Positions 6,200 through 33,665 of a DNA stretch of 64,000 nucleotides are shown piece by piece. Where the stretch lies: NCBI GenBank assembly GCA_035934555.1, contig DASYXT010000096.1:1-64000 (forward strand), written 5' to 3'. The first letter of the stretch is position 1; every line of letters begins with the position of its first letter. The stretch is from Verrucomicrobiia bacterium (GTDB lineage: Bacteria; Verrucomicrobiota; Verrucomicrobiia; Limisphaerales; UBA8199). The notes beneath the pieces were generated by a model that saw nothing but the letters and a program-made list of their open reading frames with translations, had not been told where the DNA came from and made no database searches. Both the position numbers and the translations under genes were made by a program.

Positions 6200-7852
6200 T
6201 TAAGCCGGCGCCCCCACCAGTTGTTCCTCGGCTTGCGGCAGCGGGTGAACCAGTTTGCCGTAGTCCAGCTTGAGCAACCGATCGGCGAGGTGGAAATAAT
6301 GGTCGTCGTGGGTAATCACGAGAACCGTTTTGCCGCGCGCTTTAAGGTCCGGAAGCAATTGGGAGTAAAAGACGCGTTTGAAGTGGGGGTCCTGGTCTGC
6401 AGCCCATTCATCAAACAGGTAGAAGGGGCGGTCTTCCAGGTAGGCGGTAAGCAGAGCCAGGCGCTTGCGCTGGCCTTGCGATAGGGCGGTCGTGGAGAGG
6501 GCGCCGTTGTTGATTTTTACTTTGTACTGGAGGTGGAGGGCTTCCAGGTACTCGGCCGCTTGAGCGTCCAGCCCGGGGCTTTCCAAGCCGAGAAGCTGAT
6601 CAAACAGGTAAAAGTCGGAAAAAACCGCGGCAAACAGTTGCCGGTACTGGTCGCGGTTTTCATTGGTGATCGGGCGGCCGTCGAGCCGGATTTCGCCCTG
6701 CTCCGGCACATACAAACCTGCAATCAACTTGGCGAGGGTGGATTTACCGCTGCCATTGCCGCCGACCAGAAAGACGAGTTCGCCGCGCCGGAATGCGAGG
6801 TTTATCGGGCCGAGCACAAAGTGGCTGTCGTCCTTCTCGGAGTGGTAGGAGTGCAGGACACCAATCAATTGGAGGCGCTCGAAAGTCAGCGGTGTCTCCT
6901 GCTGCTCGAACGAACAGGACTCGTTGGAGTGTTCGGCGAGCGAAATCCCAAGGTGCTGAACTTTTTGCAGGGCGATGCTCGCGCGGCCGAAGAGGGAAAA
7001 GCTGCTCATGACGCCAGCCAGCGGACCCATCAGATAGAGTGTGGTGACGACGTAGCCGGTCAGGGTGTGTCGGCTAAGGGCGGCCAGATGAGGCACAAGG
7101 AACAGGATTAAACCGATTAAAGCGAAGTACAGGAAGTGATTCCAGCTTTGCGCGATAATGAAACAGTTTTCCGCGGTGACATTGTGCCGCTGATAGATGT
7201 CAGTGGTCGATTCGACGTTGGCATAGTAGGCGCCGCGCCGGCGCCGGTGCAGTTTCAATTCCTTGATCCCCTCGGTCAAGGCGCGGAACGAAGTGAATAA
7301 TCTATCTTCGGCTTCGCGCGCCAGGTTCAGGTATCGAAAAGCCCGGCCGACGACCAACCGATAGCCGAACCCACCGACGAGGATCAAGCCGCCGACGCAA
7401 AGCAGGATTCTCCAGGAGAGCCAGCCGAGGTAAGCCGCCCCCCCCAATAACATGGCTATGTTGACGGTAATGACGGGAATCCCCAAGAGGGCCTGAGTGA
7501 TATTGAATACATCATCGGTTAGCGCGACCAGGATGCGGGCAGAGCCAAGTTCTTCCAATTGCCTAAGCGGAACAGCCAGGACCTGGCGGATCAAATCACG
7601 CCGCAACCTGGCAATGGCGCCTTGCGAAAACCGCACCAGCATGACCTGGGATGCGTAATTGCTGAGCAGCTTCCCCAGCCCAACGGCGATAAAGGGCCAC
7701 ATGAGCGAGCTGAAAGCCGACCGCGGCTCGGTGAGGGCGGTGCTGACCAGGGCCACGAGGGCGGCGTTACACGCGCCGCTAAAAATGGCCGCCAGCGTGG
7801 TGAAGACGACCATTCGGCGACAACTGCGGAAAACGAATTTAAGCAGCAGCAT
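6200..7852 (-). CDS. ABC transporter (fused permease + ATPase) of the cyclic-peptide exporter family (SyrD/PvdE/YojI-like)
   Basis: Six TM segments, then Walker A GGNGSGKST, signature LSQGQRKRLAL and Walker B FYLFDEWAADQD. The start MLLLKF at 7852 overlaps the NRPS2 stop at 7839-7841 by ~14 nt. The ORF extends to 7939 only through an unlikely N-terminal extension. Confidence 0.8.
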   Translation of the reverse strand: MLLLKFVFRSCRRMVVFTTLAAIFSGACNAALVALVSTALTEPRSAFSSLMWPFIAVGLGKLLSNYASQVMLVRFSQGAIARLRRDLIRQVLAVPLRQLEELGSARILVALTDDVFNITQALLGIPVITVNIAMLLGGAAYLGWLSWRILLCVGGLILVGGFGYRLVVGRAFRYLNLAREAEDRLFTSFRALTEGIKELKLHRRRRGAYYANVESTTDIYQRHNVTAENCFIIAQSWNHFLYFALIGLILFLVPHLAALSRHTLTGYVVTTLYLMGPLAGVMSSFSLFGRASIALQKVQHLGISLAEHSNESCSFEQQETPLTFERLQLIGVLHSYHSEKDDSHFVLGPINLAFRRGELVFLVGGNGSGKSTLAKLIAGLYVPEQGEIRLDGRPITNENRDQYRQLFAAVFSDFYLFDQLLGLESPGLDAQAAEYLEALHLQYKVKINNGALSTTALSQGQRKRLALLTAYLEDRPFYLFDEWAADQDPHFKRVFYSQLLPDLKARGKTVLVITHDDHYFHLADRLLKLDYGKLVHPLPQAEEQLVGAPA

Positions 7853-10800
7853 AGGTATGTGACGGAACTGAAGTTGGCTCAGAGCCCAACTGTGCCTCGG
7901 CCAGCGCAGCGGCCAATGCCCGGCCAAGGTCCTGAACATTGGGCTCGATAAAGATGTTCTCGTGCGACCCAGGGATGTAATTGATGGTCACGCCGCCGAG
8001 AGCCAGGCTGCCCCAGCAAAAATCCTCCTGCAGCGAACAAAACAGCGGCTGGCCCTGGGTGCGCAGCAGCGTCACGCGGCCGATATAAGCCTGGTCAACG
8101 TGCCTGACCAACGCTTGCAAGTGAGCCTGCCAAAGCTTGAGTTCGGTTTCAGGGAAATGCCGTGTGTCGATCACTTCCTCAAGGTCCACCATCTCCGAGC
8201 CGGCCGAGCCGAAACAGCGACTTTTGAACTTGCGCCCCAGCGCGCGCGCCTTACGCCTGACGAAGGCATGGCGCTCGCCCCAGGACAGTGCGGCAAAATC
8301 TCTCAACCAGTGTGCGGCGTTGCGGGCGAAGCGCCAGGCGTAGTCCGGGCGCCACCAGGTGACGGTTTCATAGCCGGCATTGGAGGGGGCGCTGTCGAGC
8401 AGTGCCACCAGGGCAACCCGCTGCCCATCAAACTGAAGTTGCCGGGCCATTTCGTATGCGACGTTGCCCCCAAAACAGTAGCCGCCCAGGTAATACGGCC
8501 CCTGCGGCTGGTGCGCGCGCACGGCTTCGAGATACAAACGGGCCATCTCTTCGAGGTTATCCGGTTCTTTCAGACCGAGTTGGCCGCGTGATTTGATCCC
8601 ATATACCGGCTGGTCGGGCGGCAAGTGCACCGCCAGGTTGGCGTAGCCCCACAAAACATCGCCGCCAGCCCCGTGGACCAGGAATAGGGGCGGCTTGGCC
8701 CCATGCGGCTGGATCGGGACGAGCAATGAATCGGACTGCGTGGCTTGTTCGCGGCAGAGCACCTCAGCGAGGGCTTTGACTGTGGGCGCCTGAAAGACGG
8801 TGACGAGCGGCAGCTTGCGGCCGGTGCTTTTCTCGATTTCCGCAAACAACCGCACCGCGAGCAGCGAATGGCCGCCCAACTTGAAGAAGTCGTCGTCAAT
8901 GCCGACCCGCTCGATGCGCAGCAATTCCTGCCAAAGCACGCACAACCGACGTTCCATCTCGGTGCCCGGCGGTGAATACGTTTCACCCTGCCGCGCGCGT
9001 GATGGTTTTTCGGCTTCAAACCGGTGGTGGACGGCGGCGATGTCGCTGGCCTGGTCGGCAATGGTTTGGTACATGGCCAGCTTGCGCGCCGAAACTGGGT
9101 TGGCTGCCGGAAGTATCGGAGTCGCAGCGGCTGCGACCGGTGCCGAGCGGGACTTGGGCGGAACAAAATGAACCTGCGCCGCGAACGCACTCGGAAACCG
9201 AAATACGAACCCGCCATTTAGAGGCTGCTTGAAGGCAGCACCAACGTTTTCGAGGAACTCCTCGACGGGTTTGTTCTTTGCCGTGCGGACAAAATGCACG
9301 CTGACCCATTCCAATTGTTGCTGGCGGGCGATCTGCCCCAACCGGGCCAGCATTTGGTGCTCGACTCCTCTGCCCAGCACTCGACAGCTCAAAAGGAACA
9401 GCTCGACCTGCAGCGTGTTGTTCCGGCGTTCGCATTGAATGGCACCAACCACGCCGTAATCGCCAAAGCGATCCCGGACCTCCACCGTCAACACCTGGCC
9501 CTTGCCCAGCAATTGCTGGGTCTCGGGTGGGGAGAGCCGGCGCGGGTGGGCATTGAATTGGTTGGTGCGCTGCGTTAACTGCGAAACCCGCCCCACCTGC
9601 TCGCCTGGCATCGGCTGAATTGTCACCTGCAGGTCCAATCCCGCAACGAAATCGGCCAGGCTCGGCGTCGCCGCGCGGAGTTGTTCTCGCTTTTTTTCCT
9701 CTTGATACAACTCGGCCCGGCGCCGGTCCTCGGTTGTCAGTTCCAACTGATCGAATGCCCAGCAATGCTGCAGAAAGTTTTCGAGCTCCTCCGGCTCCGC
9801 CGGGGTTTGCAAGACGAGCACTTCCGGACAGTTAGCGCGCACTTCCGCGCATTCGACCGGGTTATCATCCAGGAAAATGAAACTGTCCAAGCCGAGGTTC
9901 AGTTCCCTGGCGAGGTCTTTCAAGTTCTCAGATTTAGGCGACCAGTTTAATCGCATCGCCGTCAGGTGCTCACGTCGCAGCGGCATGTCGAGCCGACGCG
10001 CAAAGACTTCCAGCGCATCCTCCTGGTTGTTTTTGCTGCAGAGGCAAAGCAACTTCCCCGCTTCGCGTTGGCTCAGGAGGAATTTCTGCAACCCCTGGCG
10101 GCCGGGTTCCAAACGAACGCCGGCGGGGCCATCTTCGCCACAAACCCCCGACCACAGGGTCTGGTCGCAATCCAGCGCGATGACCTTGAACCGGGGGCGG
10201 TTCAGCGCGTCATATTTGCGAACAACCGCGGTAGCCAGCGCGGTGAAGAACTGCGGCGTATAAGGCACGTGCCCCAATTCCTCGCTTCGACTATCGGCAT
10301 ATTCCGCGACAGGATACCAGCGGGCCAGTTCTTCGGACCGAAGTAGATACACGCCGGCGATGTTCGCCAACTCCTCGGCTAAGCGGGTTTCGGCGGCTGC
10401 CAGCGCCTGCGCGCTGGGGGCATCACGCAAAAGCGCTGGTGATGCCGGGCAAAAGCAAACCAAGTAGCGGGAGGCAGAGCACGCCGCAGCGGCTTTCAAC
10501 GCCCCAGCGAACTCATTCACCGTCCGGTCGAGCCCCTCTAGTGCGCCGTACGCGCCGGAGCCGGCCACGGCCGTATCCGTGCCCAGCCAATCTTGCAGGC
10601 GCAGCAACAGCACATTCAAGCCGCGCGAGTTCCCGGACAACAGGCTGTCGGGAGCCAGCAGTTGTTGAAAGAGCTGATTATATGGAGCGAAAGTTACGGC
10701 AGCGGGCAGACCTAGTTCCCTCAACCAGAAACTGAGCGGGTCAGCCAAAGGCTCCCCGGTGAAGGTGGCGGCAATGGCTAGCGTAGGTTTTTCTTGCGAC

Positions 10801-13800
10801 GCAGCCGGCGCCTTGCTCGTTTGCACCAAATTGTCCGGAAGAACCCATTCGCGCAGTGGCGCTTGGGGCTGGTGGATTAACTGCTCGAGAATTCCCAGAT
10901 ATCCAGCGACCACCTGTTGGATTGTCGCGGGAGTGAACAAATCTGTCCGGTACTCGCAGGCCAGAACCGCCCCCTCGGGTGTATCTTCGATCTCGAATCG
11001 CAAATCGAGCAGAGCCGCGTCGAGCGTGACCGGCTCGGCGCGGCTGCGGAGTTGGTCGGTGTGAAAGGGGTCTCGGGGAAAGCTCTGTAAGAGCAGCGCC
11101 ACATTATAGAGTGGGTTTTGATTGAAGCCGCGTTGCGGGTTGACCGCTTCGACGATTTTCTCGAACGGGCATTCCTGGTGTGCCTGGGCCTCCAGTACGC
11201 TGGCCCTGACGCGGCGCAGCACTTCCAGGCCGTTTACATCCTCATTCAGTTGCGCCCGAATCGGCAGGAAATTCATGAAACAGCCCTGAACTTGCTCCAC
11301 TTCCCGCCGCGTGCGCCCGGCCACCACGGTGCCGATGACAAGGTCCTGCTGCCCTGTCCACTTTTCCAGCGTGATCGCCAGGGACGTCATATGCAGCATA
11401 AACGCGGTGCAACCCTCGCGGTGTCCCAATTGGGCCATCCCCTGCGCCACCGCTTCAGGAATGAGTTGCGTGTAGCGAGCCGCTTTGCCCGACCACCCTG
11501 CCGCGGGCGCGAAATCGGCCGGCAACCGAACCATAGGCGGCGCGCCGGTGAGGGTTCGTGTCCAATAATCCAGCTCGCGCTGGAGAACGCTTCCGTGCAG
11601 ATGCTCACGTTGCCAGTAAACAAAATCCACGTACTCAATTGGCAGCGGCGGCAGCGCGGGAGCGGGCTGGCCAGCGGCAAAGGCCGAATAGAAACTTTGC
11701 AATTCCTGCAACAACAGCGCGACCGACCAGCCATCGGAGATGATGTGGTGCAGAACCAGCGCAAACACGTGTTCGGTTTCGCTTAAGCGGGCCAATCCGG
11801 CGCGGAGCAAGGGTCCCCGCGACAGTTCGAAGGGCTGCTGCGCCAGGGCCTGGAGCCATTGCCGGTTCTGGGACTCCTGATCGGCGGGTGCCAGCGCTTG
11901 AAAGTCAGCCGCAGGCTTTTGGATGAGGATTGGCAGGCGCGGCGCGACCATTTGGCTCAGCGCGCCATTTTCGAAATGGAACGTAGCGCGTAACTGCTCG
12001 TGGCGACTGACCACACTTTGGAGCGCGCGATGCAGGGCTGCTTCGTCCAAGTGGCCCGTCAGCCGGATTGCTTGAACAACGTGATAAGCATGGCTGCCGG
12101 GTTGAAGTTGGTCCAGGAACCACAGCCGTTCCTGCACGAACGAGAGCGGATTGCGGGCGGGTCGCTGCCTGCGGCGCAAGGGATGGCCCGGCAGTTGCTC
12201 GCTCCAGCGGTGTTCTGCCAAACCTGCTGCCAAACCCTCAACTGTTGGCGTGGCAAACAGCGCTTCCAGCGGCAGCTCCACTTCGAATTGCTCGCGAATG
12301 CGCGAAATCACTCGCGCCGCCAGCAACGAATGCCCCCCGTACTCGAAAAAGTTATCCTGCACGCCAATTTTCGTGCGACCGAGCACCTCGCGCCAGATGC
12401 CCAGTAACTGTTCCTCAAGGTCGGTGCGGGGGCCGGCAATAAGAGCGCCGTCAGTGCGTGTATCCAGTTCCGGCGGCGGCAGCGCTTTGCGATCCACTTT
12501 CCCGTTAGGCGTGAGCGGAAATTTCTCGAGCACCACATACGCCGAGGGCACCATGAACTCGGGCAAACGCGCCGCGGCGACGCGGCTCAGCTCCTCCAAA
12601 GGCGGCTTTGCCTCCGGGCAACCGACGTAACCCACCAGCCGTTTATCCCCAGGCCGATCTTCCCGCACCATCACGAGCGCTTCGCGTACCAAAGGATGCC
12701 GCTTGAGCACGGCCTCGATCTCGCCAGGTTCAATGCGGAACCCGCGCAACTTCACCTGATGATCCAAACGGCCTAAGTACTCGAGATAGCCATCCGCCCG
12801 CCACCGCGCCAGGTCGCCGGTACAGTAAAGCCGTGCCCCGGGCTGCCAGGGATGGGCGATGAACTTTTGCTCGGTCAATTCCGGCTGGTGCAGATACCCG
12901 CGTGCCACCCCGGCGCCCCCGATACACAGCTCCCCGGGAATGCCGATGGGTACCGGCTGCCGATTAGCGTCCAGCACGTAAACCTGCTCATTGGCCAGCG
13001 GCCGGCCGATGGTGGCGGGTGCGCCAGGCTGTCGCAGAGTGAACGTTGAGTAGGTGGTGGTCTCCGTAGGGCCGTAGAGATCGTAAACCTTCTTGACCGC
13101 TGTTTCGCGATAAATCTGGTCCACCAACGGTGTCGGCAAGGGTTCTCCGGCCAGGTTGATAACCCGCACTTTGGCCGGCACCGATTTCAACCGCAGACAC
13201 TCGCGAATCGCCGAGGGGACCGTGTTGATCAACGTGATTTCGTCAGCGGCGGGCAAAGTGGACGGCGTTAGCGCATTCTCAGCGATGATGATTTTCCCAC
13301 CCCAACTCAGCGGCGCGAACATCTCGAACACCGAAAGATCAAAGCCGATCGAGGTGGCGGCCAAAACCCCTGCGAGTTCCTCCGCGCTGTAAGTCTCCTT
13401 TGCCCAATGCAGCAACGCCACCGCATTACGCTGCTCGATTGCGACTCCTTTAGGCCGGCCAGTCGAGCCGGAGGTATAAATTACATAAGCCAGGTTCTCT
13501 GGCGACGCTGTGCAAGTTATGGGGTTGACTGTTTCCTCGCTGGAAACACCGCCGACCTCGGGCAACTCCTCCAGCCAAACAACCGCGGATTGCCCTTCTG
13601 GAACCAGATGCGAGAACTTGCGCTGGGTAATCAGCATGGCAGCGCGGGCATCTTCCACGATCCCACGCAGGCGCTCAGTGGGATAACCAGGGTCCAGCGG
13701 TACGTAAGCGGCCCCCGCTAACATTGTGCCCAACAGGGCCGCCACGAGGTCGGGCCCGCGTTCCAGGCAGACGCCCACCAGGCGCTCCGGTCCCGCTCCG

Positions 13801-16800
13801 AAGCGCTGCAAATAAGCCGCAATTTGACGGCTGCGCGTTTCCAACTGCTGGTAAGTCCAGCGCGCCTCCCCGGCCACGAGCGCCTCAGCCTTGGGCGTGC
13901 GCGTCGCCTGTGCCAGAAACAGCCCGGGAATCGTCTGTTCCCGCGAGAAGGGCCGTTGCGTCTGATTCCATTCTACCAGCACGCGAGTGGTCTCGGCCGA
14001 AGCCATCAACGGCAACGTCGAAATGCTTTGCTCCGGGTTGGCCGCGGCTGCGGCTAGCAGCGTCAGCCAGTGCTCGATCAGCCGGGAAATCCGGGCCGGT
14101 TCAAAAAGATTATTGCGATACTCGATCCAGCCCGACACCTGCCCCGCTGCGCCGACCAGGTGTAGCAGCAAGTCCAACTTGGATGTGCGATTGTCAACTG
14201 CCAGCGGCTGAAATTGAAGCGGCGCGGAAGACGATTCCGGAACCAGCTCCGGCTCGAGCACCAACGCGGTCTGAAAGACCCGTGCATAGCCGGGTTGACA
14301 CCGCGGGTTGACGCGGCGCACCACCTCGAAGAAAGGCACCTCACTATGGGCCATCGCCTCGGTAGTCGTTTGATTGATGCGACGCAGCACTTCCCGGAAG
14401 GTTGGGTTGCCTTCCAGCCGGCAACGCAGTGCCAGCAGGTTGTCCGCATTAAAGACCAGGTCTTCGGGCACGTCCGCCATGGCGCCGGCGGCAACGGTGC
14501 CGATCACCAGATCGCTGCAGCGGGTGTACCGGTGCAGCAGCACGGCAAAACCACTCAGCAACGTCACAAACAAACTGCAGTTATCTCTCCGACTCACCTC
14601 TTCCAATCGCGCGACGAGTTCGGGCGGTACCGTCAGTGGCATGCGCGCGCCCTCGCCGTTTCGTTGTGCCGGGCGCGGATGGTCTGCAGGCAACTCCAGC
14701 ACGGGAGGCACCCCAGCCAGTTGCTCGAGCCAATATTGGCACTGCTGCTCCTGTTTAACAGAAACCGCGGCGCCCCGCGCGACCACCTCTTCGTACTGGT
14801 CTGGAGACGATACCACCTCAGGAATGCCCTCTGCGGCCGCCTGGCCATAGAGAGTTGCAAGTTCTCGTAGCAGTAGGCGCACCGAGCGGCCATCAACCGC
14901 TAACTCGTGCAGGACCAATAACAGCCAGTGTTCATCCGGACCGAGCCGAGCGAGCACGGGCCGCAAGACCTGGTGGGTGCCGACATAGGGCCGGCGCGAC
15001 TCCTGTTCCAACCGGGCCATGGCTTGTCGTTCCCGCTGTCCCTGAGGCACCGAAGAGAAATCGAGCATCGGAACGGCTACCTCGGCCGGTTCACAGATGT
15101 ATTGGAACGGCTCGCCAGAACCAGCGGGAAACACCGCCCGCAAAGCGGTATGCCGCGCTGCCAGAACAGCCAGGCTTTGGTTGAGCGCCTCAAGGTTCAG
15201 CGGCCCGGAGAGGCGAACCCCCACCGGACGATTTTGCGGGGCGCGTCCTTTATAGAATTGCTCGGCAACCCACAGCCGCTGCTGACTAAGGGACAACGGC
15301 AGCCGCCGCGCGCCGTCCAGCAGTGCGGGCGTCATCTCCAGGTGGATTGGGCACCCGGTCTCCCTCAAAAAAGCGGCCAATTCGGCAACCGTCGGATGGG
15401 CAAGGAAATCGCCAAGAGAAACGTCGCATTGCAAAGTCTCGCGAATGCGCGACAGGATCTGGGTTGCCGCAAGGGAATGGCCGCCGAGATCGAAGAAATT
15501 GTCGTGCCGCCCAATCGGTTGCACACCGAGAACTTCACTCAGCATCTGCGCGAGCTTCTCTTCCAGCGGCGACTGCACCGGCGCAAACTCCTGCTCGAGC
15601 ACCGGGCGTGCGTTGCCCGGCATAGGCAACGCACGACGGTCCACCTTCCCAGCGGGCGTCATTGGCAAACTGGTCATTCGCACGAGCCCTGCCGGAACCA
15701 TATAAGCCGGTAACTTCTTCTTGAGGTAGCTCAACAGCTCGTTGAAACCGGGCGAGTGTGGTGGACGCTCGACGTAATACCCTACGAGCCGCTTTTGACC
15801 CGGCGCGTCTTCCCGGGCTACCACAACGGCCTCTTTGACTCCCGGGTGGCCGGCGAGCACCGACTCGATCTCGCCTACCTCGATCCGGAACCCCCGCAGC
15901 TTGACCTGTTCATCCACTCGCCCGAGGAATTCAAAATTCCCATCGGGCCGGAGCCGGGCAAGGTCACCTGTCTTATATAACCGCGGCGAATCCACCTGGC
16001 CTTTAAACGGATTGGGGATAAACCGCTGCGCCGTCAACTCTGGTCGGTGCCGGTAGCCGCGCGCCAACCCCGCCCCGCCGAGATACAATTCCCCTTGCTC
16101 ACCCGGCGGCACCGGCTCCAACCGATCGGTTAAAAGCACCACCTGCGTATTGGCGATCGGACGCCCAATTGGTAGCCCCGCCTCTTCGCCGACGGCAGTA
16201 AAGACAGTTGAAGTCACGGTGGCCTCGGTTGCGCCATACGCATTCATCAGCATCACCGCGCCACCCACGCAATGCTTCCACTTCGCATGGGCGGTTTCGG
16301 ATGCCTTTTCCCCACCGATGATCATCAACCGCACTGAATGAGGTAGTTCGCTGCCCGAACGGTCCAGGTAATCGGTCAGTTCGTGCCAATAGGCCGTCGG
16401 TAGATTCAGCACGGTAATCTGTTCCTGCGCGACGAATTCCAGGAAACGCTCCGGCGTGCTGATGAGTTCGTCCGTGCGCAACACCAGCGTGGCGCCCCTG
16501 AGCCAGGTAGGGAAGATTTCCTCAACCGAGATATCAAAACTCAACGGAGTGAACTGCAGCACCCGGTCCACTGGTTGCAGCCCATACAAGCGCGCCACCG
16601 CCAGGTTATGATTCAACAATGAGCGGTGGGTCACTTCCACACCCTTCGGCGCTCCCGTTGAACCGGAGGTGTAAATGACGTAAGCCAGCGTATCAGCGGT
16701 GACCGTGGCGGCCGGCGCCCCCATCGCGCACGCATCGATAGCCGCCTTGCTCAGCGGGTCGTCCAGGCAAACCATACGGCGCCCGCCGTTATTCCAGACC

Positions 16801-19800
16801 CCCGCCAGATTCTGTTGGGTCAGCAAGAGCGGGGCGCGGCTGTCCGCCAGCATATAGTTAAGCCGCTCTGTCGGGTAAGTAGGATCCAACGGCAGATACG
16901 CCCCACCTGCTTTCCACACGCCCAGTAAAGCGGCCATCAATTCGGGCGTTCGCTCCAAACAAACCGCTACCAGCACCTCGGGCCCCACTCCCAATGTCTG
17001 CAGGTAATGCGCCAGTTGGTTGGACCGCTGATTGAGTTCGGCATAGCTCACCTCCTGGCCAGCGAAGCGCAGGGCCTTTCCCGAAGGCGTCTGCAATGCT
17101 TGACGCACAAAGCATTCCACGTAAGTGCTGGGCCCGCTAACCGGAGAGCGCGGCCCCAGGCCGGCCGATGGGATTGCCGGGCGCGCGGTCTCGACCAGGT
17201 TGGCTGATTCTAAACAGCCGGCGTGTTCCTCACTCGAACCATTCCCGCTGTTAGTTGCCGCGGCACCGGCATCAGGCGCAGGGGGTTGCAAGCTCGCCAG
17301 GGAATCGAGCCGCTTCGGCGGCTGAGGCATTCGACCGCGGTTCAAGACCTCGCTAAGGCTGACGGCCAGTGCTTGGACGCAAGGCTCCTCGAGGATCTTC
17401 TCGTGGGCCCCGCTCACCACCGTCACCGTCACCCCGGCCTTCGCCAGGTCGCGCCAGCCATAGTCCGGATCAAACGAGCACCAGAGCGGGTGACCCGGGC
17501 TCCGGAACAGGTGAACACGGCCGGGATAGGGACGGGGATGAAATTGGACCAGCGCGCGCACGTGTGCCTCCCACATTTTTCGCTGCTCCTCGTCGAAGGC
17601 AGACAGGTCCACCAGGTCGCCCGGTTCCACGCCTGTCGGCATTTGGCCGCGGGCACTTCCACGCAAGCGCTTTTTAAGGAGTCTCCATTTCCACCGAAAG
17701 AACTCACGCCGTTGGGGCCTGCTCCAGGAACAGACATAAGTGACCCAGTACAGCAGGTTCCGCAGCAAGCGCAGCCACCAAAGACCAGTCCAGGGAATGC
17801 GCGTATAGGTTGAGTTCGGCGGTGAACAATTGAAAAGGGCGAGTAACCCGACCTCCTCATTGAGCTCGGCAAGCTGGCGCGCCATCTCATACGCCACCAC
17901 CCCACCAAAGCAGTACCCGCCCAGATAGTAGGGACCTTGCGGTTGGACGCGCCGTAAGTCGGCCAGATAGGCGGCAGCCATCTCCTCGATGCTGTTATGT
18001 TCCTTTTCTCCTTCCAGGCCGCGGCTCTTGAACCCATAGACCGGTTGCTCGGGACCCAGGCGTCGCGCCAGATTGACATAGCCCCAGAACATCCCCCCGC
18101 CCGCTCCGTGCACCAGGAACAGCGGCGGCAATGAGCCCTTGGCCTGGATCTCGACGACTGAGGTCCCGGAAGAGCCCTGGCGCTGGTCTTGATGCAACGC
18201 CACGCACAACTGTGCCACAGTGGGCGCCTGGAACACAGTAGCCAGCCGCAGCTTCTTGCCGAAAACTTTTTCAACCTGCGCCAGCAGCCGCACTGCCAAA
18301 AACGAATGGCCTCCCAGCTCAAAAAATTTGTCTTCCACACCGATGGGCCTGACGCCCAAAACGCTCTCCCAAATCTGCACCATCTGCGTTTCGGCCTCGG
18401 TGCGCGGCGCGGTATATTGTTTCTCAAGCTCCGGGCGGGCTTGCTCAGGCGCCGGCAGTGCCTTGCGGTCCACCTTGCCGTTGGGCGTCAGCGGCAGCTT
18501 TTCCAAGCGGATGAAAGCCGCCGGCAACATAAACTCGGGTAATTTCCGGCTTAGAAAATTCCGAAGTTCGCTGGTGTTCGGGGCGGCCGGCCCGGCCGGA
18601 ACAAAATAGGCCAGCAACCGGCGATTGGCCGCGCTCTCCCCCCAGAGTCTCGTCACGCAATCCTTAACCCCCGGGTGGCTGCTCAATACCGTTTCCAATT
18701 CCCCAAGCTCAACCCTGAACCCCCGGATTTTGACCTGCTGATCGATTCGCCCAAGAAACTCGATGGTCCCGTCCGTCCGGTACCTCGCCAGGTCACCCGT
18801 TTTGTACAGTTTCTGGCCCGGGATAAATGGATTGGACACGAACCTCTCGGCCGTCAATTCCGGCCGGTTCCAATAACCGCGCGCGAGGCCATCGCCCCCG
18901 GCGTACAGCTCGCCCGCCACACCGCTCGGAACGGGGTTGCGATGCCGATCCAGAATGTACACTTGAGTGTTGGCAATGGGGCGTCCGATGGGAACTGAAA
19001 CGGCGCCCTCGTTGAGCTCCTGCACCCGGTAGCAGCAAGTGAAGGTCGTGTTTTCGGTCGGACCATAACCGTTCAGCAAGCGCTCCGGCGGCCCTTCTCG
19101 CAGCACCGAGCGAACCCATTTCGGATCGAGCGCTTCACCACCGGCCAGCACCGTGCCCACACCCGCCAGACTGCCTGGCGCTTCTGCGGCCAATTGATTG
19201 AACAGCGCCGCTGTCAAAAACATCGCGGTAATCTTCTGCTCGCGCAAAGCGCGCCCCAGCAACCTCGGCGAGAGCAGGACCTCCTGGCTAATCCCCACCA
19301 ATTGCCCACCGTTCAACAACGCACCCCAAATCTCAAATGTCGCGGCATCGAACGACACATTGGAAATTTGCGCGAGCCGGTCCCGCGCGCCCAGGTGGAT
19401 GAAATCGGTGTTCAGGACCAGGCGATTAATGGCCCGGTGCGGCACGGCCACGCCTTTGGGTTGGCCGGTCGAACCCGACGTGTACATGATATACGCGAGG
19501 TTCTCCGGCTCCGCCAGCCCCGCCGGGTTCTCCCTGCTCTCTTTGGCGGCCATCTCCCAGTCGCTGTCCAGGCACACGACTTTGGTCGGCTCCGAGGTGA
19601 ACCGACTCAGCAATCCTTGCCGGGTCAGAACCACGGGTGCGCCCGTGTCTCGAAGCATGAACTGCAGCCGCTCACCAGGATAACCTGGATCCAGCGGTAC
19701 GTACGCACCACCCGCTTTGAGAATTCCCAACAAGCCGACAATCAGTTCCTCCGAAGGTTCCAGCGCCACTCCCACCGGCACGTCCGGCCCAATCTTTAAA

Positions 19801-21407
19801 CGGCGCAAATAGTGAGCCAGTTGGTTGGCCCGGTGGTTGAGTTCGCTATAGCTCAAACTGCGCCCGCCATAAACGACCGCCGGGGCAGACGGCGTCCTGG
19901 CCACTTGCGCCTCGAATACCTGATGAACGGTGCATTGGCGCGGATAATCTGATTGCGTTTGGTTCCATTCCACGAGCAGCCGGTCCTCTTGCGCCGGAGT
20001 AAGCAAGGGCAATTCCAAGACAGGCCGCTGCGGCCGCGCAATAATTCCCTCCAGCAGAACCTGAAAACTCTCCAGCAGTTGCTCAATGGTGGCTGCCTCG
20101 AACAGCTCCCTCCTATACTCGGCGCTCAGCAGCAAGCCTTGACCGGTCTCGCGCGCTACCAGCGTCAGGTCAAACTTTGCCGTATCGGTCCTGACGGGAA
20201 GGAACTCCACACTTAGGCCAGGCCAATCGAGTTTGTCCCGGGATTGGTTCTGCAGCACAAACATGACCCGCGTGAAAGGCAGATGATCGAGCGACCGCTC
20301 AGGCCGCAGGTGCTCGACCAATTTCTCGAACGGCAAATCCTGATGCGCATAGGCGCCCAGTGTCGTCTCGCGAATGCGCCCAAGCAGGTTGAGGAAGTTC
20401 GGGTTATCCGCCACGTTGCTGCGGAAAAGCAGCGTGTTGACGAAAAAGCCTATCAAAGGTTCGATTTCAGCGCGCGTGCGCCCGGCAATCGGCGAGGCTA
20501 CGGTCAGCTCGTCCTGGCCAGTGTATCGATGCAGCAACGTTGCCAGAGCTGCCTGCAGCGTCATGAACAACGTCGTCTCCTGTTTTTTTGCCAGTTCAAC
20601 TATTTGCCCCGTCAGTTCCGGGTTTAGGAGACGGGATCGTTCAGCTCCACGAAACGAGGGGGTCGCCGGGCGCGGCTTGTCCGTCAGCAACTCCGTCATT
20701 GGGGCGTTTCCGCCTAACTCCTCTTTCCAATAGGCCAAGAGCGATTGCAGGCGCGTGCCCGTGAGCCATTGCCGCTGCCAGGCTGAATAGTCGGCATATT
20801 GAATCGCGAGTTTCGGCAATCGGCTCTCATTGCCTGAGGCGGCCGCGGTGTAAAAAAACTCCAATTCCCGGAAAAGGATATTCAACGACCATTCGTCAGC
20901 CACGATGTGGTGGAGAGTAAGGATTAACCAGTGCTGGTCGGCATCCAATCGCAGCAACAAACCGCGTATCAACGGCGCGGTGCGCAGATCGAACGGCCGA
21001 TTGACTTCGGAACGCACGAGTCGCCGCGCCTCAGCTTCGCGATCAGCCTCAGGATGCCGGGTCAAATCGACCTGGACCAGCTTCAGCTCCGCGCGTGCCT
21101 CGACGAGCTGCATCGGCGTATCATTCAAAGAGACAAACCGCGTACGCAGTGTCTCGTGTCGCTGCTGACAAAGATAGAGCGCCTGCTGCAAAGCCTCGAC
21201 GGCGAGTGTTCCCCGAAGCCGCAATAAGGTCGGAACATTGTACAGCGCGCTATTGGATTCCAGTTGGTCCAGAAACCAAAGCCGTTCCTGGCCAAACGAT
21301 AATGGGCTGAGGGGCAACGGTCCTGCGCCGTTGCGCCATTTGTCCGCCAAAGCCGCGCGTTTGGCTGCAATCGTGTCAGCCATCGAAGGGTGGTTGCCTT
21401 TCATCAT
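7839..21407 (-). CDS. Giant NRPS (4522 aa). Domain order C-A-T-TE-A-T-C-A-T-C-FkbH(HAD-IIIC)-T-TE
   Basis: Read from the translation. C motifs HHIVADEWS and HHIISDGWS, plus a variant HELAVDGRS. Three A domains ([48 protein letters not shown]; [20 protein letters not shown]). Four carrier domains (GGHSFLA, GGHSLAA, GGHSLLA, GGHSLLA). Two alpha/beta-hydrolase TE domains with GGYCFGG nucleophile elbows. An FkbH-like HAD domain with [20 protein letters not shown]. Confidence 0.95.
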
Positions 21408-24400
21408 GTAGAAACTGTGCGAACGGGTCGGACCGCCAGAAGGTCGTCAAGTTCCTCGGGCGTTAATTGTTCCAGCAGCGTGTTCAGCTCCGAGCTATCT
21501 GCCGGCTGACGCGGCCGGATGACAGCCCCCGCGGCCGGCTCTTGCTGCTCAAGGCGCCCCAACTGCTCAGCTAATCCGGCCACCGTCGGCGCATCAAAGA
21601 GCAACCGCACCGACAGCTCCAATTCCAATGCAGCGCCCAGACGCGCGATCGCCTGGGTCGCCATCAATGAGTGTCCGCCCAGGTGGAAAAAATTTTCCTG
21701 AATGCCGATTTCCTTGCGGCCCAGTAGTGCGCACCAGGTTTCTGCCACCAGCTTTTCCAAACGGTTTCGCGGCCCGCCCCCGGCGTCTTGGTGGTCCGGC
21801 TCTTCGGTGGCCAGCCTGGCCAGGGCGCGCCGGTCCACCTTGCCGTTGGTCGTCAGCGGTAACTCCTTCAGCAGAATGAACCGCCCCGGCACCATGTAAT
21901 CCGGCAGCTTTTCGCACAAATACGCGCGCCAATGGTCCGCTCGGCGTGCTTCGCCGGCCGTCACGATATAGGCCAGGAGCGTCTTGCCACCGCCGGCCTC
22001 GGGCTGCGCCAGGACAACACTTTGCTTCACATCCACATGGCGGTTCAGCCATGCCTCGATCTCCCCTAGTTCCACACGGTGGCCGCGAACCTTCACCTGA
22101 TCGTCCAGGCGGCCCAGGTATTCCAATTCCCCCTTTGAAGTGTAGCGGCCGAGGTCGCCGCTCCGATACAATCGGCCACCGGTCGTCGGCGCGAAAGGAT
22201 CAGGAACAAAGCGCTTTTCCGTCAATTCCGGGCGGTTGAGGTACCCGCGCGCTACTCCGGCTCCGCCGACGCATATTTCGCCTGCCACACCCGGCGGAAC
22301 GTGCCGCAAGCTCTCATCCAGCAGGTACAATCGAAGGTCAGGAATGGGCACGCCAATGACGCTGCCCAAACCGCGCTCCAGATCGCTTTGGCGAAGCGGG
22401 CGGTACGTCACATGCACGGTCGTCTCTGTGATGCCGTACATATTAACGAGCCGCGGGCGCTCATCCCCGTGCCGCTCGAACCATGGCCGCAAACTTTGCA
22501 GTTCGAGCGCCTCGCCGCCAAAGATCACATACCGCAGGTTCAGGGACCGGGCCGCTCGCGCATTGGTCTCAGCCCATATAAGTTGCCGGAACGCTGAGGG
22601 TGTTTGGTTCAGCACGGTCACGTTTTGGCCAGCCAGCAATTGCAGAAACTCGTTGGGCGAACGGCTGACCAAATAAGGCACTACCACCAGCCGCCCGCCG
22701 TAAAGCAGCGCTCCCCACAGTTCCCAGACGGAGAAATCGAAAGTGTAGGAATGGAACAGAGTCCAGACATCGTGCGAGCCGAATTCGAACCAGGGCTGGG
22801 TTTGCTGAAACAGGCGCGCGACATTTCGGTGCGTCACCAGCACACCCTTGGGCTGGCCCGTCGAGCCCGAGGTGTAAATGACGTAAGCGGTTTGGCCCGG
22901 GTTTACTTTCGTCCCCAGGTTGTCTGCGGACTCCTCTCCAATTTTATCTTGCTCCAAATCTACACAGAGGACGCCAGCGCTCTCGGCCGGTAAAACCGTC
23001 CGGAGGTGTTGCTGAGTGATCAGCACCGGTGCGTGGGTGTCCTGCAGCACGAAGCGAATCCGCTCGACCGGGGCGGCTGGCTCGAGCGGCACGTAATAGC
23101 CTCCCGCTTTTAAGACCGCCAGAATGGCGATAACCATCTCAAGGGATCGCTCCAGGCACAGCGCCACAGGTGTTTCAGGTCCGACCCCGCGCTGTTGCAG
23201 GTAATGCGCCAACTGATTTGCGCGGCGATTCAGCTCCTCGTAGGTCAAACGGGTGTCCCCGCATACCAGCGCCACCGCGGTTGGCGTGCGAGCGGCCTGT
23301 TGTTCAAACCAGTCGGTCAGGGCCACGTCGGATGCGACGCACGGCGTCTTGGGGTTTAACTCAGTTATGAACCTCTGTCGCTCGAGGTCGCTCAACAGCT
23401 CGAACTCCGAGAGCTTGCGCTGCGGCTCGGCCACAATCCCGCGCAGAAGCGCTTCGAATTGGCCAACCCACTGGCGCACGGTGCCAGCCTCGAACAAATC
23501 GGTCGAATATTCTGAGCGAACCGCCAGGCCCTGCCGTGTCTCAGTCACCAGCAAGCTCCAATCGAACTTCGAACCGCCGTTATCCACTTCGACCCGGCTG
23601 ACGCTCACTCCCGGCAATTCCCAATCTTCCAATTGGGCCGGTTGCAACGCCAGTACTGTCTGGAACAGCGGGTGGCGGTCGGCCTGGCGCTCGGGGCGCA
23701 GGCGCTCCAGAATCTTGTCCACGGTCACCTCTTGATGCGCATACGCCCCCAGGACGTTTTCCCGGACACGGCTCAACAGCTCGGTGAATGCGGGGTCTCC
23801 GCTCAAATCTGTTCGCAAGGCGTGTGTGTTAGCGAAAAAGCCAAGCAGCCCCTCGGTTTCGAGCCGGCCACGGCCGGCCATTGGTGTCCCAACAATGACG
23901 TCTTCCTGGCGTGTGTAGCGATGCAGTAAAGTCTGATACGCGGCCAAGAGCGTTATGAACAACGTCGCCCCGTGCCGCTGGCTTACTCCTTTGAGTCCCT
24001 CCGTCAATTCCCGATCAAAATGGAAAAACTCACTCGCCCCAGCCAGTGTGTTCGCGGCCGGCCGCGTCCGGTCGGTGGGCAATGCCAGAACCGGCAGTGG
24101 CTGGGCCAGTTTGGTTTCCCAATAGGAAAGCTGCTTCTGGATCCATTCACTGCCCAGCACATCACGCTGCCACACGGCAAAATCGGCGTATTGGATGGGC
24201 AACTCGGGCAAAGCCACCGGCCGCGTTGTCAGCTTCGCCGTATAAACCTCCGCCAATTCGCGCCGAAAAACTTCGAATGACCACTCATCCGAAATGATGT
24301 GGTGCATCGCTAACAGCAGCACATGATCATCTTCAGCCAGGCGAAAGAGGGTGGCTCGGGCCAATGGACCGCGGCGCAAGTCAAATGGGCGGCGCGCCTC

Positions 24401-24778
24401 GAGGGCAAAACGCCCTTCCCATTCACCCGCCTGCCGGCTCTCTCTTAGATCGGCTATTTCCAGCGCAAACCTGCCGGACGGTCTGATGACTTGCACCGGG
24501 CGGCCATCAGTTATCCCCATAACCGTTCGCAACACCTCGTGGCGGCGCACCAACGTGTCCAGCGCGGCCTGCAAGCTGGCGGGGTCGAGTTGTCCACGCA
24601 GGCGCCAGCCTTCGGCGAGGTTATAGGCCGAACTACCGGGGACCATCTGCTCGACGAGCCAGAGTGTCTCTTGCAGAAACGAGAGTGGGAACAGGTCCAC
24701 CGTGGCCGTGGGCCCGGTGTCCAGGCGCGAACTGCCGGCGAGCTCAGGTTGGCCTGCTCGCATTTGGAGGGGATTCAT
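21404..24778 (-). CDS. NRPS initiation module C-A-T (1124 aa) with a short C-terminal docking-like tail
   Basis: C domain (HHIISDEWS), A domain ([52 protein letters not shown]) and carrier domain (LGGHSLMATQ). Its stop overlaps the NRPS2 start as ATGA (21404-21407). Confidence 0.95.
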   Translation of the reverse strand: MNPLQMRAGQPELAGSSRLDTGPTATVDLFPLSFLQETLWLVEQMVPGSSAYNLAEGWRLRGQLDPASLQAALDTLVRRHEVLRTVMGITDGRPVQVIRPSGRFALEIADLRESRQAGEWEGRFALEARRPFDLRRGPLARATLFRLAEDDHVLLLAMHHIISDEWSFEVFRRELAEVYTAKLTTRPVALPELPIQYADFAVWQRDVLGSEWIQKQLSYWETKLAQPLPVLALPTDRTRPAANTLAGASEFFHFDRELTEGLKGVSQRHGATLFITLLAAYQTLLHRYTRQEDVIVGTPMAGRGRLETEGLLGFFANTHALRTDLSGDPAFTELLSRVRENVLGAYAHQEVTVDKILERLRPERQADRHPLFQTVLALQPAQLEDWELPGVSVSRVEVDNGGSKFDWSLLVTETRQGLAVRSEYSTDLFEAGTVRQWVGQFEALLRGIVAEPQRKLSEFELLSDLERQRFITELNPKTPCVASDVALTDWFEQQAARTPTAVALVCGDTRLTYEELNRRANQLAHYLQQRGVGPETPVALCLERSLEMVIAILAVLKAGGYYVPLEPAAPVERIRFVLQDTHAPVLITQQHLRTVLPAESAGVLCVDLEQDKIGEESADNLGTKVNPGQTAYVIYTSGSTGQPKGVLVTHRNVARLFQQTQPWFEFGSHDVWTLFHSYTFDFSVWELWGALLYGGRLVVVPYLVSRSPNEFLQLLAGQNVTVLNQTPSAFRQLIWAETNARAARSLNLRYVIFGGEALELQSLRPWFERHGDERPRLVNMYGITETTVHVTYRPLRQSDLERGLGSVIGVPIPDLRLYLLDESLRHVPPGVAGEICVGGAGVARGYLNRPELTEKRFVPDPFAPTTGGRLYRSGDLGRYTSKGELEYLGRLDDQVKVRGHRVELGEIEAWLNRHVDVKQSVVLAQPEAGGGKTLLAYIVTAGEARRADHWRAYLCEKLPDYMVPGRFILLKELPLTTNGKVDRRALARLATEEPDHQDAGGGPRNRLEKLVAETWCALLGRKEIGIQENFFHLGGHSLMATQAIARLGAALELELSVRLLFDAPTVAGLAEQLGRLEQQEPAAGAVIRPRQPADSSELNTLLEQLTPEELDDLLAVRPVRTVST

Positions 24779-26794: not shown

Positions 26795-26862
26795 TGGCAC
26801 AGGAAGCCTGAAGGAAACTGCTTCAGGCACTGGGCAAGCGCGGAGGATTTTACCCTTTTCCA

Positions 26863-26891
26863 TTGCCAGGACACGAACCGTGTGGTTGAAT
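26863..26891 (+). promoter_or_regulatory. Candidate sigma70-like promoter TTGCCA-N17-TTGAAT with an embedded palindrome ACACGaacCGTGT, upstream of the beta-helix operon
   Basis: Hexamers at 26863-26868 and 26886-26891. GGAG Shine-Dalgarno 8 nt before the ATG at 26916. The palindrome lies in the spacer, operator-like. Confidence 0.3.
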
Positions 26892-26915
26892 CTTTACAGA
26901 ACCCGGAGACCCATT

Positions 26916-30598: not shown

Positions 30599-30602
30599 TT
30601 TC

Positions 30603-33328: not shown

Positions 33329-33658
33329 ATGGCTATACAAGTATTATCCCTGGGAAGTGGGCAATTGAGCACAACCTCCCAGAGCAACCTGTACACGTCA
33401 CCAACATCGCCATCGCTGACAACCGTGGTGAAGAACATTAGCCTAGTAAACGTGAGTAGCTCGCCTGTGACCGTCAACCTTTACTTCAAGCCGAACGGTG
33501 GCTCGGTCCGCCGAATCGCGCCGCAGAACATGAGTTTAGCGGCAGGTGCACTCGCGATTGAGGACCAGGAGGTGACGATGGGCGCCGGGGATCAGATTCT
33601 CGGCGACGCAAGTGCAGTTAGCGCGGTCGATTGGGTCATGAGTGGTATTCAGAGGTGA
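33329..33658 (+). CDS. Hypothetical Ser/Thr-rich small protein (109 aa)
   Basis: ORF with reasonable codon usage, immediately upstream of and coupled to the Gly-rich gene. No recognisable domain. Confidence 0.4.
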   Translation: MAIQVLSLGSGQLSTTSQSNLYTSPTSPSLTTVVKNISLVNVSSSPVTVNLYFKPNGGSVRRIAPQNMSLAAGALAIEDQEVTMGAGDQILGDASAVSAVDWVMSGIQR

Positions 33659-33665
33659 GGTCGTC

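Follow-up and report, generated by a model that had tools for sequence, protein, structure and literature searches.

FkbH modules are among the few routes by which an NRPS places a non-amino-acid C3 diol acid in a peptide. In the vioprolide and corramycin lines, module 2 has the order FAAL-ACP-C-FkbH-T (PMC8949500, PMC10099666): FkbH occupies the place of an A domain, flanked by C and T, and a hydroxyl of the T-bound glycerate is acylated by the preceding C domain with a fatty acyl group from FAAL-ACP, near the start of a line in which more modules follow. In module 4 of cystomanamide (C-FkbH-PCP; product Asn-Asn-Phe-GA-Tyr), the C domain passes a peptidyl chain to FkbH-loaded glycerate within the NRPS, and the glycerate is internal, a Tyr module and then a TE following it (PMC9581180). 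The only described terminal case that we found is that of foxicin, for which FoxBII and FoxBIII (...ACP-C-FkbH and PCP-TE, respectively) have a proposed biosynthetic role (PMC5318452). The stand-alone proteins OzmB, ZmaN, and FkbH, of ~360 aa, work in trans with a discrete ACP, and their products enter the synthesis of methoxymalonyl or hydroxymalonyl extender units (PMC9057759). Finally, BurF of malleicyprol (C-NEX-T-Red) has a terminal module whose LCL-like C domain links a separately made chain, through an ester, to the hydroxy acid that the final carrier domain bears; it has NEX, while its phosphatase and acyltransferase subdomains are lost, the hydroxy acid arrives via BurH, and release is reductive (PMC12304814).

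NRPS2 and its neighborhood

Here, we analyzed a window of 64,000 nucleotides from an uncultured Verrucomicrobium. NRPS2 was called as a single unbroken ORF that, with A domain specificity included, reads C-A-T-TE-A-T-C*-A(Ala)-T-C-FkbH-T-TE (Table 1). The domain map was drawn with HMMs made from the window's own domains, and the A domain codes were read off an alignment for which the Thr-type domain served as the anchor; Pfam counted three C, three A, four PP-binding, and two Thioesterase domains. This module type is already known; here it is the terminal module of a conserved and unusual NRPS with a thioesterase in mid-protein. While the vioprolide and corramycin modules receive their acyl group from FAAL-ACP, the FkbH module of NRPS2 is the last one, follows an Ala-type A-T donor, and is followed by a Cys thioesterase; no FAAL was found in the window, and A(DLFNNALTYK)-T takes the upstream position. 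In contrast to cystomanamide, nothing follows the predicted glycerate. Foxicin shares the terminal C-FkbH, carrier, and TE with NRPS2, except that it is made by a Streptomyces PKS-NRPS hybrid distributed over two proteins, with a polyketide donor.

The stop codon of the NRPS1 gene overlaps the start of NRPS2 (ATGA), and NRPS1 is also syntenic beside the relative P0121. The start of the exporter gene is probably Met30 at ~7852. The divergent regulator/kinase gene likewise adjoins the NRPS genes in L003/L004 and on the P0121 contig.

Table 1. Genes, modules, and domains at the NRPS2 locus (positions in the window)
Feature	Position	Strand	Description and basis
Cyclic-peptide export ABC transporter gene	6200..7939	minus	TIGR01194, 498.7 bits vs cut-off of 286.2
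NRPS2 gene	7839..21407	minus	4522 aa; ORF; C-A-T-TE_N-A-T-C*-A-T-C-FkbH-T-TE_D
TE_D, terminal thioesterase	7908..8717	minus	Pfam Thioesterase and alignment; Cys4311, Asp4338, His4482
T4, carrier after FkbH	8721..8960	minus	Pfam PP-binding; Ser4181 (8865-8867), LGGHS motif
FkbH unit, long type	9183..10775	minus	aa 3545-4075; TIGR01686 match
GNAT-fold acyltransferase subdomain	9177..9629	minus	aa 3927-4077; holds Cys4008
HAD-IIIC phosphatase subdomain	9771..10184	minus	aa 3742-3879; D3746, D3748, T3750, S3791, K3825, D3847, D3848
NEX subdomain	10200..10784	minus	aa 3542-3736; GDSL/SGNH-like fold
C3, condensation domain ahead of FkbH	10812..12161	minus	HHIISDG intact, His3221
A3-T3, donor module for C3	12183..13925	minus	Code DLFNNALTYK, Ala-type
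C*, condensation-like, full length	13971..15317	minus	Second His missing: H2167-E2168, HELAVDG
A2-T2 module, C-less, directly after TE_N	15330..17117	minus	Code DIENIGAVTK, no substrate call
TE_N, internal thioesterase	17349..18152	minus	Pfam Thioesterase, aa 1095-1198; Cys1166, Asn1193, His1335
C1-A1-T1 module	18159..21320	minus	A code DAFFLGGTFK, Val/Ile-type; HMM domain map and code alignment
NRPS1 gene	21404..24778	minus	1124 aa; C-A(Thr, DFWNIGMVHK)-T; profile and code reading
Response-regulator/PAS/histidine-kinase gene, divergent	25256..26794	plus	Pfam

Identity, motifs, and fold of the FkbH unit

The original prediction placed an FkbH/HAD-IIIC domain at positions 9108-10775, which correspond exactly to residues 3545-4100, and its quoted peptide strings are present in the translation of the NRPS2 ORF. 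Our analyses confirm that this stretch is a genuine, intact FkbH domain of the long type. TIGR01686 (NCBIfam, FkbH domain) matched residues 3740-4060 (E 3.3e-94) at a score of 315.6 bits (curated cut-off, 146.65) and over profile positions 3-322 of 323, a match that, judged by profile score, lies far beyond chance; TIGR01681 (HAD-IIIC) scored 61.8 bits, also above its cut-off (35.75). NCBIfam was needed for this assignment, as Pfam gave no model between the Condensation and PP-binding matches, the sole hit being a sub-threshold one to DACND. The predicted order C-FkbH-T-TE was recovered, with Condensation extending to ~aa 3525 and followed by FkbH, PP-binding, and Thioesterase. Relatives align over 97-99% of the query. 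The conserved unit begins at ~3545, as predicted, and stops at ~4075 and not at 4100.

The alignments also show that the catalytic residues are kept, in agreement with the prediction of an intact DxDxT signature. HAD motif I (D3746-C-D3748-Q-T3750; D3746 codon at 10170-10172) keeps its DxDxT residues unchanged throughout sets of 97 homologs and 16 diverse homologs, and reads DCDQT here and DCDNT in most relatives. Motifs II-IV are represented by S3791 (SKNN), K3825, and D3847-D3848, all of which also align with the protein that served as our reference for stand-alone FkbH proteins. This protein is encoded in a zwittermicin-like plasmid cluster (L036), and we take it to be of the ZmaN type based on gene order; the FkbH unit is 28% identical to it over the HAD and acyltransferase parts. 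Cys4008 (codon 9384-9386) in the SCR motif is the sole conserved Cys (16/16 diverse homologs and 97/97 homologs) and immediately precedes R4009-x-x-G4012-x-G4014. Because of this conservation, we consider it the candidate catalytic Cys, and by sequence it would be the glyceryl-carrying site.

An AlphaFold2 model of the FkbH unit (mean pLDDT 92.5) has three subdomains, i.e., NEX, a HAD-IIIC phosphatase, and a GNAT-like acyltransferase, so that the phosphatase fold and the acyltransferase are joined in one unit as in the family. NEX is the N-terminal extension typical of long FkbH proteins. The N-terminal part of BF1531 (PDB 3slr) differs in that it belongs to an uncharacterized Bacteroides protein that is not part of an NRPS, and the crystallized fragment lacks the acyltransferase subdomain. 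The HAD motifs, the SCR Cys, and the expected overall mechanism are common to NRPS2 and OzmB, ZmaN, and FkbH, which differ by the absence of the ~200-aa NEX (PMC9057759).

Predicted glycerate loading, ester formation, and release

By analogy with the characterized enzymes, the FkbH unit most likely puts glycerate on T4, the last carrier. T4 lies directly downstream (PP-binding, 54.9 bits), and FkbH stands between C and T where an A domain would be. Following OzmB, Cys4008 would take the acyl group from 1,3-bisphosphoglycerate to form a thioester, an S-enzyme intermediate of the kind reported for this enzyme type (PMC9057759). The 3-phosphate would be removed at the HAD site with Asp3746 as the nucleophile, and the glyceryl group would move to the phosphopantetheine arm on Ser4181 of T4, with the arm lying in the GNAT CoA-type groove beside Cys4008. 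The intact C3 would then transfer the Ala-terminated chain from T3 to one of the glycerate hydroxyls, giving an ester, and the product would be freed by the Cys-type TE_D and secreted by the adjoining ABC exporter. Our analyses directly show family membership, intact motifs, the fold, the order of the domains, and the conservation of this architecture, and we infer the substrate, the ester bond, the mode of release, and the existence of two lines (see below). Taken together, OzmB-like loading of T4, esterification to the Ala chain by C3, release by TE_D, and a donor that starts after TE_N in a two-line logic form the reading that we favor with some confidence.

The predicted ester formation agrees with the properties of C3. 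By motif (HHIISDG), C3 is catalytically intact, and it is LCL-like, as are the characterized ester formers, among which the VioA C domain is listed as characterized in vitro (PMC12304814). The closest solved C domains are those of Txo2, Txo1, and TycC (279-199 bits). We considered an ester-forming clade of pre-FkbH C domains; in a small neighbor-joining tree of 31 C domains, they fell into at least three groups, and because they do not form one clade, we claim no sequence signature for ester formation. The ester to a glycerate hydroxyl in the original prediction fits the characterized C-FkbH-T modules (PMC8949500, PMC9581180, PMC12304814), and loading together with ester formation is consistent with vioprolide, cystomanamide, corramycin, and foxicin.

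It is improbable that FkbH loads something other than glycerate, such as another phosphorylated hydroxy acid, or that the glyceryl group is further modified before release. Substrate choice is not readable from sequence, motif I is DCDQT rather than DCDNT, and the vioprolide FkbH domain has been reported to activate D-3-phosphoglycerate (PMC10099666); yet every motif in common with the ZmaN/OzmB type is intact, and no dehydrogenase or methyltransferase tailoring genes lie beside the NRPS genes. Still less plausible is that TE_D closes a β-lactone from the 3-OH of 2-O-acyl-glycerate as ObiF does in obafluorin. Glycerate offers a β-hydroxyl, the nucleophile motif of TE_D is GYC4311FGG, i.e., Tyr-Cys-Phe, and the Cys thioesterases ObiF and SulM make four-membered rings (PMC11298585). 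In these two enzymes, however, the triad Asp is at position II, after strand β7, and the SulM motif is Gln-Cys-Asn (PMC11298585). In TE_D, Asp4338 is 27 residues past Cys4311 and aligns, at the sequence level only, with the position-I Asp of 7crn, which together with 4zxh (AB3403), NocB, and EntF is among its nearest PDB chains. Moreover, GYCFGG occurs across the TE subfamily as a whole, also in lines whose last residue is an ordinary amino acid. Based on the Asp position, the motif, and this subfamily-wide Cys, we rejected β-lactone release.

A chain-ending FkbH module would yield peptides capped with esterified glycerate that carry a free carboxylate or an extra ring. We know of no such compound characterized for this cluster family, and, to our knowledge, almost no natural products are known from the source phylum.

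The internal thioesterase and the donor chain

The tripeptidyl donor of the original prediction was not supported; that reading had missed TE_N, the upstream gene encoding C-A(Thr)-T, and the absence of the catalytic His from C* (HELAVDG). The donor comprises four residues if the line is continuous, and never three. Because the cassette that recurs in relatives is A(Ala)-T-C-FkbH-T-TE, with the Ala-type code DLFNNALTYK also preceding C-FkbH in L001, L005, P0121, P0122, P0125, and P0164, we propose that the donor reaching C3 has Ala as its last residue and probably consists of one or two residues in all. Most likely, this chain starts after TE_N, and NRPS1 and NRPS2 would then represent two fused lines: C-A(Thr)-T plus C-A(Val/Ile)-T-TE_N, and A-T-C*-A(Ala)-T-C-FkbH-T-TE_D. 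A misassembly or chimera as the origin of the internal TE was rejected as the same order is present in the independent assemblies L002, L005, and P0121. TE_N is 48% identical to TE_D; its Cys/Asn/His triad, with Asn1193 where Asp is expected, is conserved in the ortholog group. Lipo-initiation by the first C domain was not supported, this domain being LCL-like; against the N-terminal C domain of NRPS1, Txo2 gave 345 bits, compared with ~60 bits for the starter C domains of CDA and rhizomide.

That, close to the original prediction, a single continuous line joins Thr-Val/Ile-X-Ala in order, with C* active even though it lacks the second His and TE_N in a tailoring or proofreading role, and passes a tetrapeptidyl chain to glycerate as an ester appears unlikely to us. 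NRPS2 is one ORF translationally coupled to NRPS1, C* is full length with its first His and Asp in place, and in L001 and P0122 the domains right after TE_N are C*-A-T, resembling a T-C junction with an insert. In contrast, the catalytic-His position of C* varies among relatives (E, T, G, or A; HELACD in L005, HELVTD in L001, HGVASD in L002, and HTIIAD in P0121) and is therefore not under catalytic constraint; P0122, P0135, and P0173 have only the C-terminal half of the post-TE C domain; a C-less A-T after TE_N is the signature of a loading module; and TE_N-type domains terminate other lines. The two-line reading has difficulties of its own, because A2-T2 has no onward route if C* is dead, while L001 and P0122 look like one continuous line if it is alive. 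No model fits all architectures without an extra assumption.

A third possibility, which we regard as doubtful and base on analogy, is that the two fused lines converge on alanyl-glycerate. TE_N would hold the line-1 Thr-Val/Ile chain on Cys1166 and, as a cis chain-ligating transacylase in place of the decayed C*, would pass it to a line-2 nucleophile (the second, free glycerate hydroxyl, or else a free amine, belonging to Ala or to the A2 residue), much as oligomerizing thioesterases or the thioesterase of FrsA (FR900359) do. FrsA forms a small line of its own (C-A-T-TE) next to another NRPS line, and its TE hands the product to a hydroxyl of that other line's product, as shown in vitro (PMC7794379). 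At least 10 clusters at 50% identity have C-A-T-TE_N fused to a second line, the conserved Cys/Asn/His set implies that TE_N is under selection, the decay of the following C domain agrees with its function having been replaced, and EntF-like and Vlm2-like ligating thioesterases are among the PDB relatives of the TE family. FrsA, however, is a protein in its own right and contains a starter C domain (PMC7794379), whereas the TE_N unit, known here from sequence, is fused, has LCL-like N-terminal C domains, and carries a Cys/Asn/His triad. In addition, two of the six complete internal-TE proteins (P0123 and P0127) are without FkbH, and glycerate is thus not an obligatory acceptor. If such ligation does occur, it would be an undescribed way of joining NRPS modules, kept in uncultured Verrucomicrobiota and relatives. 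The recurring A(Ala)-T-C-FkbH-T-TE(Cys) cassette, alone or joined to the C-A-T-TE(Cys/Asn/His) unit ahead of it, offers small units for in vitro work, and such constructs might reveal how a mid-NRPS thioesterase functions.

A related module is present in a C-FkbH-T protein of the cultivable Ralstonia pseudosolanacearum (NZ_CP051172.1), whose core is 52% identical. A literature search on Verrucomicrobia or Ralstonia together with FkbH returned nothing relevant. The rarity ascribed to terminal glycerate modules holds for characterized chemistry and not for sequence data, in which C-FkbH-T-TE forms the end of at least nine distinct database sequences, in addition to foxicin. We note that NRPS2 has a low-complexity linker at aa ~1345-1430.

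The FkbH domain of NRPS2

ORF calling and translation placed NRPS2 at 7839..21407 on the minus strand (4522 aa). The protein strings quoted in the original prediction of an FkbH domain are found in this translation, and window positions 9108-10775 correspond exactly to residues 3545-4100. Pfam identified three Condensation, three AMP-binding, four PP-binding, and two Thioesterase domains in NRPS2 and had no model for the stretch of ~600 residues that separates the final Condensation domain from the final PP-binding domain. Using NCBIfam, we found that TIGR01686 matches residues 3740-4060 (E 3.3e-94; 315.6 bits versus a curated cut-off of 146.65) and that TIGR01681 scores 61.8 bits (cut-off, 35.75) in NRPS2, as predicted for an FkbH and a HAD-IIIC domain, respectively. 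Judged by sequence, the FkbH domain is confirmed and a chance match is impossible; it clearly belongs to the FkbH family and to NRPS modules of the C-FkbH-T class.

A search of a large protein collection with a 607-aa FkbH query gave 5,397 matches at E ≤ 1e-20. Because the best matches span 97-99% of the query, the ~200 residues before the TIGR01686 match are part of the conserved unit; the top match (94% identity) is from a Limisphaerales genome fragment. The layout of an N-terminal extension of long FkbH proteins (NEX), a phosphatase, and an acyltransferase has been described (PMC12304814, citing Sun et al., ChemBioChem 2008), while OzmB (366 aa) is of the short type without NEX (PMC9057759). 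An AlphaFold2 model of the unit, with a 97-sequence alignment as input, is confident (mean pLDDT 92.5; pTM 0.77). NEX lacks the GDS(L) serine despite its fold, and its invariant residues (Q3578, Q3581, N3593, G3596, N3598, D3606, and C3653-P3654) suggest a defined function.

In the 97-sequence alignment, the predicted DxDxT signature (D3746, D3748, and T3750; motif I) is invariant, as are K3825, D3847-D3848, and S4007-C4008-R4009, all with verified codons. Cys4008 is the sole cysteine kept in 16 of 16 family members, at identities down to 27%. For comparison with known FkbH types, we used a 359-aa protein from a Bacillus thuringiensis plasmid, where its gene is part of a zwittermicin-like cluster; from gene order, we take this protein to be of the ZmaN type. 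The pairwise alignment (28% identity; E 2e-32) is limited to the HAD and C-terminal parts and has all of these motifs, including the conserved cysteine, in register.

Features of the cluster referred to in the text
Feature	Window position	NRPS2 residues	Strand	Remarks
CocE/NonD-family serine hydrolase	1035-2963		minus	TIGR00976, 283 bits; signal-like N-terminus
Cyclic-peptide ABC exporter	6200-7939		minus	TIGR01194; after NRPS2
NEX subdomain	10200-10784	3542-3736	minus	GDSL/SGNH-like fold
C*	13971-15317	about 2030-2480	minus	condensation domain
A2	15579-17117		minus	A domain after TE_N; code DIENIGAVTK
TE_N	17349-18152	about 1085-1345	minus	mid-NRPS2 thioesterase

Proposed glycerate loading and ester formation

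Cys4008 directly precedes R4009-x-x-G4012-x-G4014, which matches the pattern of the GNAT CoA-pyrophosphate-binding motif. The OzmB route runs from 1,3-bisphosphoglycerate via phosphoglyceryl-S-enzyme and glyceryl-S-enzyme to glyceryl-ACP (PMC9057759), and all requirements of this scheme are present in NRPS2, including a carrier domain (T4) with Ser4181 directly after FkbH. The glyceryl thioester on Cys4008 would occupy the position that the acetyl-CoA acetyl group has in GNATs, with the T4 phosphopantetheine arm replacing CoA.

Using HMMs built on the window's own domains, we mapped NRPS1, the upstream protein, as C-A-T and NRPS2 as C-A-T-TE-A-T-C*-A-T-C-FkbH-T-TE, in agreement with the predicted C-terminal order C-FkbH-T-TE. 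The C domain before FkbH (C3; motif HHIISDG) has as its closest solved relatives the ordinary LCL-type domains of Txo2, Txo1, and TycC. Characterized ester-forming C domains, including that of vioprolide, are likewise reported to resemble the ordinary LCL type (PMC12304814), and the C-FkbH-T modules of vioprolide, corramycin, and cystomanamide make a glycerate to which the upstream chain is attached as an ester (PMC8949500, PMC10099666, PMC9581180). On these grounds, a predicted ester between the upstream chain and a glycerate hydroxyl is the best-supported reading. In a neighbor-joining tree, the C domains that precede FkbH at eight loci form no fewer than three groups; thus, no sequence signature backs this reading.

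The internal thioesterase and the donor chain

TE_N has Cys1166, His1335, and, at the expected triad-Asp position, Asn1193; the terminal thioesterase (TE_D; 48% identity) has Cys4311, Asp4338, and His4482. C* reads HELAVDG and lacks the catalytic second histidine, which is E, T, G, or A across orthologs. The domain order recurs in a Verrucomicrobiia genome (L005), an ENA assembly (L002), and the 4515-aa database protein P0121, whose contig also has neighboring genes as in the window. When TE_N was run against the complete set of 1.84 billion representative proteins, 2,693 matched at E ≤ 1e-30. Among the 22 inspected, internal thioesterases always have GYCFGG, Asn, and His. TE_N is directly followed by a C-less A-T module in P0121, P0124, P0125, P0127, P0141, and P0145, by a C domain without the second histidine in L001 and P0123, by one reduced to its C-terminal half in P0122, P0135, and P0173, and by a hardly recognizable one in P0142. 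The internal thioesterase, its Cys/Asn/His set, and the degenerate C domain are conserved and no accidents. In P0154 and L034, a TE_N-type thioesterase genuinely ends a different PKS/NRPS line, after which come an exporter and a PPTase.

A-domain codes, read from an alignment anchored on the Thr-type A domain, are, in NRPS1/NRPS2 order, DFWNIGMVHK, DAFFLGGTFK, DIENIGAVTK, and DLFNNALTYK; we take the first to be Thr, the second Val/Ile-like, and the last Ala-type. L005 shares the code DIENIGAVTK, and L002, P0121, P0129, and P0173 have codes close to it; the Glu at position 239 of DIENIGAVTK may, at a guess, indicate a basic substrate. DLFNNALTYK feeds C-FkbH in seven of eight code-read sequences ending in C-FkbH-T-TE (window, L001, L005, P0121, P0122, P0125, and P0164), the exception being P0124, whose code is Pro-type. 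P0125 has the smallest form, C-A-T-TE_N-A(Ala)-T-C-FkbH-T-TE_D.

The simplest account is that NRPS2 combines two fused assembly lines in a single polypeptide and that A(Ala)-T-C-FkbH-T-TE is an end cassette that recurs; the chain donated to the glycerate ester would then end in Ala and comprise one or two residues. A line that is continuous after all would give a donor of four residues; the tripeptidyl donor originally predicted fits neither. The position of the degenerate C* between A2-T2 and A3-T3 in the window is hard to explain: if C* is inactive, the A2 residue would be stranded, and if it is active, L001 and P0122 would resemble a single line. A putative transacylase role of TE_N, with the FrsA thioesterase as precedent (PMC7794379), would reconcile much of this. 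Since FkbH is absent in two of six complete internal-TE proteins, glycerate is no obligatory partner of TE_N.

The nearest solved relatives of TE_D are a skyllamycin-type thioesterase (7crn), AB3403, NocB, and EntF. Its Cys nucleophile next to a β-hydroxy acid could point to ObiF-like β-lactone formation, but we consider this very improbable: TE_D lacks the ObiF/SulM hallmarks, i.e., Asp at position II and the SulM Gln-Cys-Asn motif (PMC11298585), and GYCFGG is common to the whole TE subfamily, whatever the final building block.

Occurrence and neighboring genes

In sequence data, a terminal C-FkbH-T-TE is not rare: at least nine sequences end in this way (window, L001, L002, L005, P0121, P0122, P0124, P0125, and P0164). 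One terminal precedent has been described, foxicin, with ...C-FkbH and PCP-TE on two proteins (PMC5318452). BurF (C-NEX-T-Red) is a functional analogue: its C domain links two chains through an ester, using a hydroxy acid bound to the carrier (PMC12304814). What is new is that, in uncultured Verrucomicrobiota, a terminal C-FkbH-T-TE is combined with a donor module of the Ala type, thioesterases of the Cys type, and a fused internal-TE architecture.

Stand-alone FkbH-T-TE (~1000 aa) and FkbH-T (~730 aa) proteins are abundant in the database matches and in environmental bacteria (L018, L008, L009, L012, L031, and many more); no NRPS domain lies closer to them than 10 kb, and the FkbH-T-TE proteins have Ser or Cys thioesterases. 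The megaplasmid NZ_CP051172.1 of Ralstonia pseudosolanacearum, a cultivable plant pathogen, encodes an unannotated 1188-aa C-FkbH(long)-T protein (L035; 12991-16557), the FkbH core of which is 52% identical to that of the window; a literature search on this protein found nothing.

The exporter ORF as called begins upstream of the NRPS2 stop; because the TIGR01194 match begins at residue 32, the true start is probably Met30 (about 7852), giving an ~14-nt overlap with the NRPS2 stop. The CocE/NonD-family hydrolase, three genes from the exporter, is possibly linked to the predicted depsipeptide product. The cluster also includes a divergent response-regulator/PAS/kinase gene. Three large ORFs (1028, 323, and 545 aa) followed by a Gly-rich 331-aa ORF (26544-32162 and 33642-34637, plus strand) adjoin the sensor kinase gene. 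The 1028-aa ORF, the one scanned, had no significant Pfam match, and two of the three large ORFs share the N-terminal motif LDPxxxxxWxAxRTDG...GTxxDP[FY]DGST.
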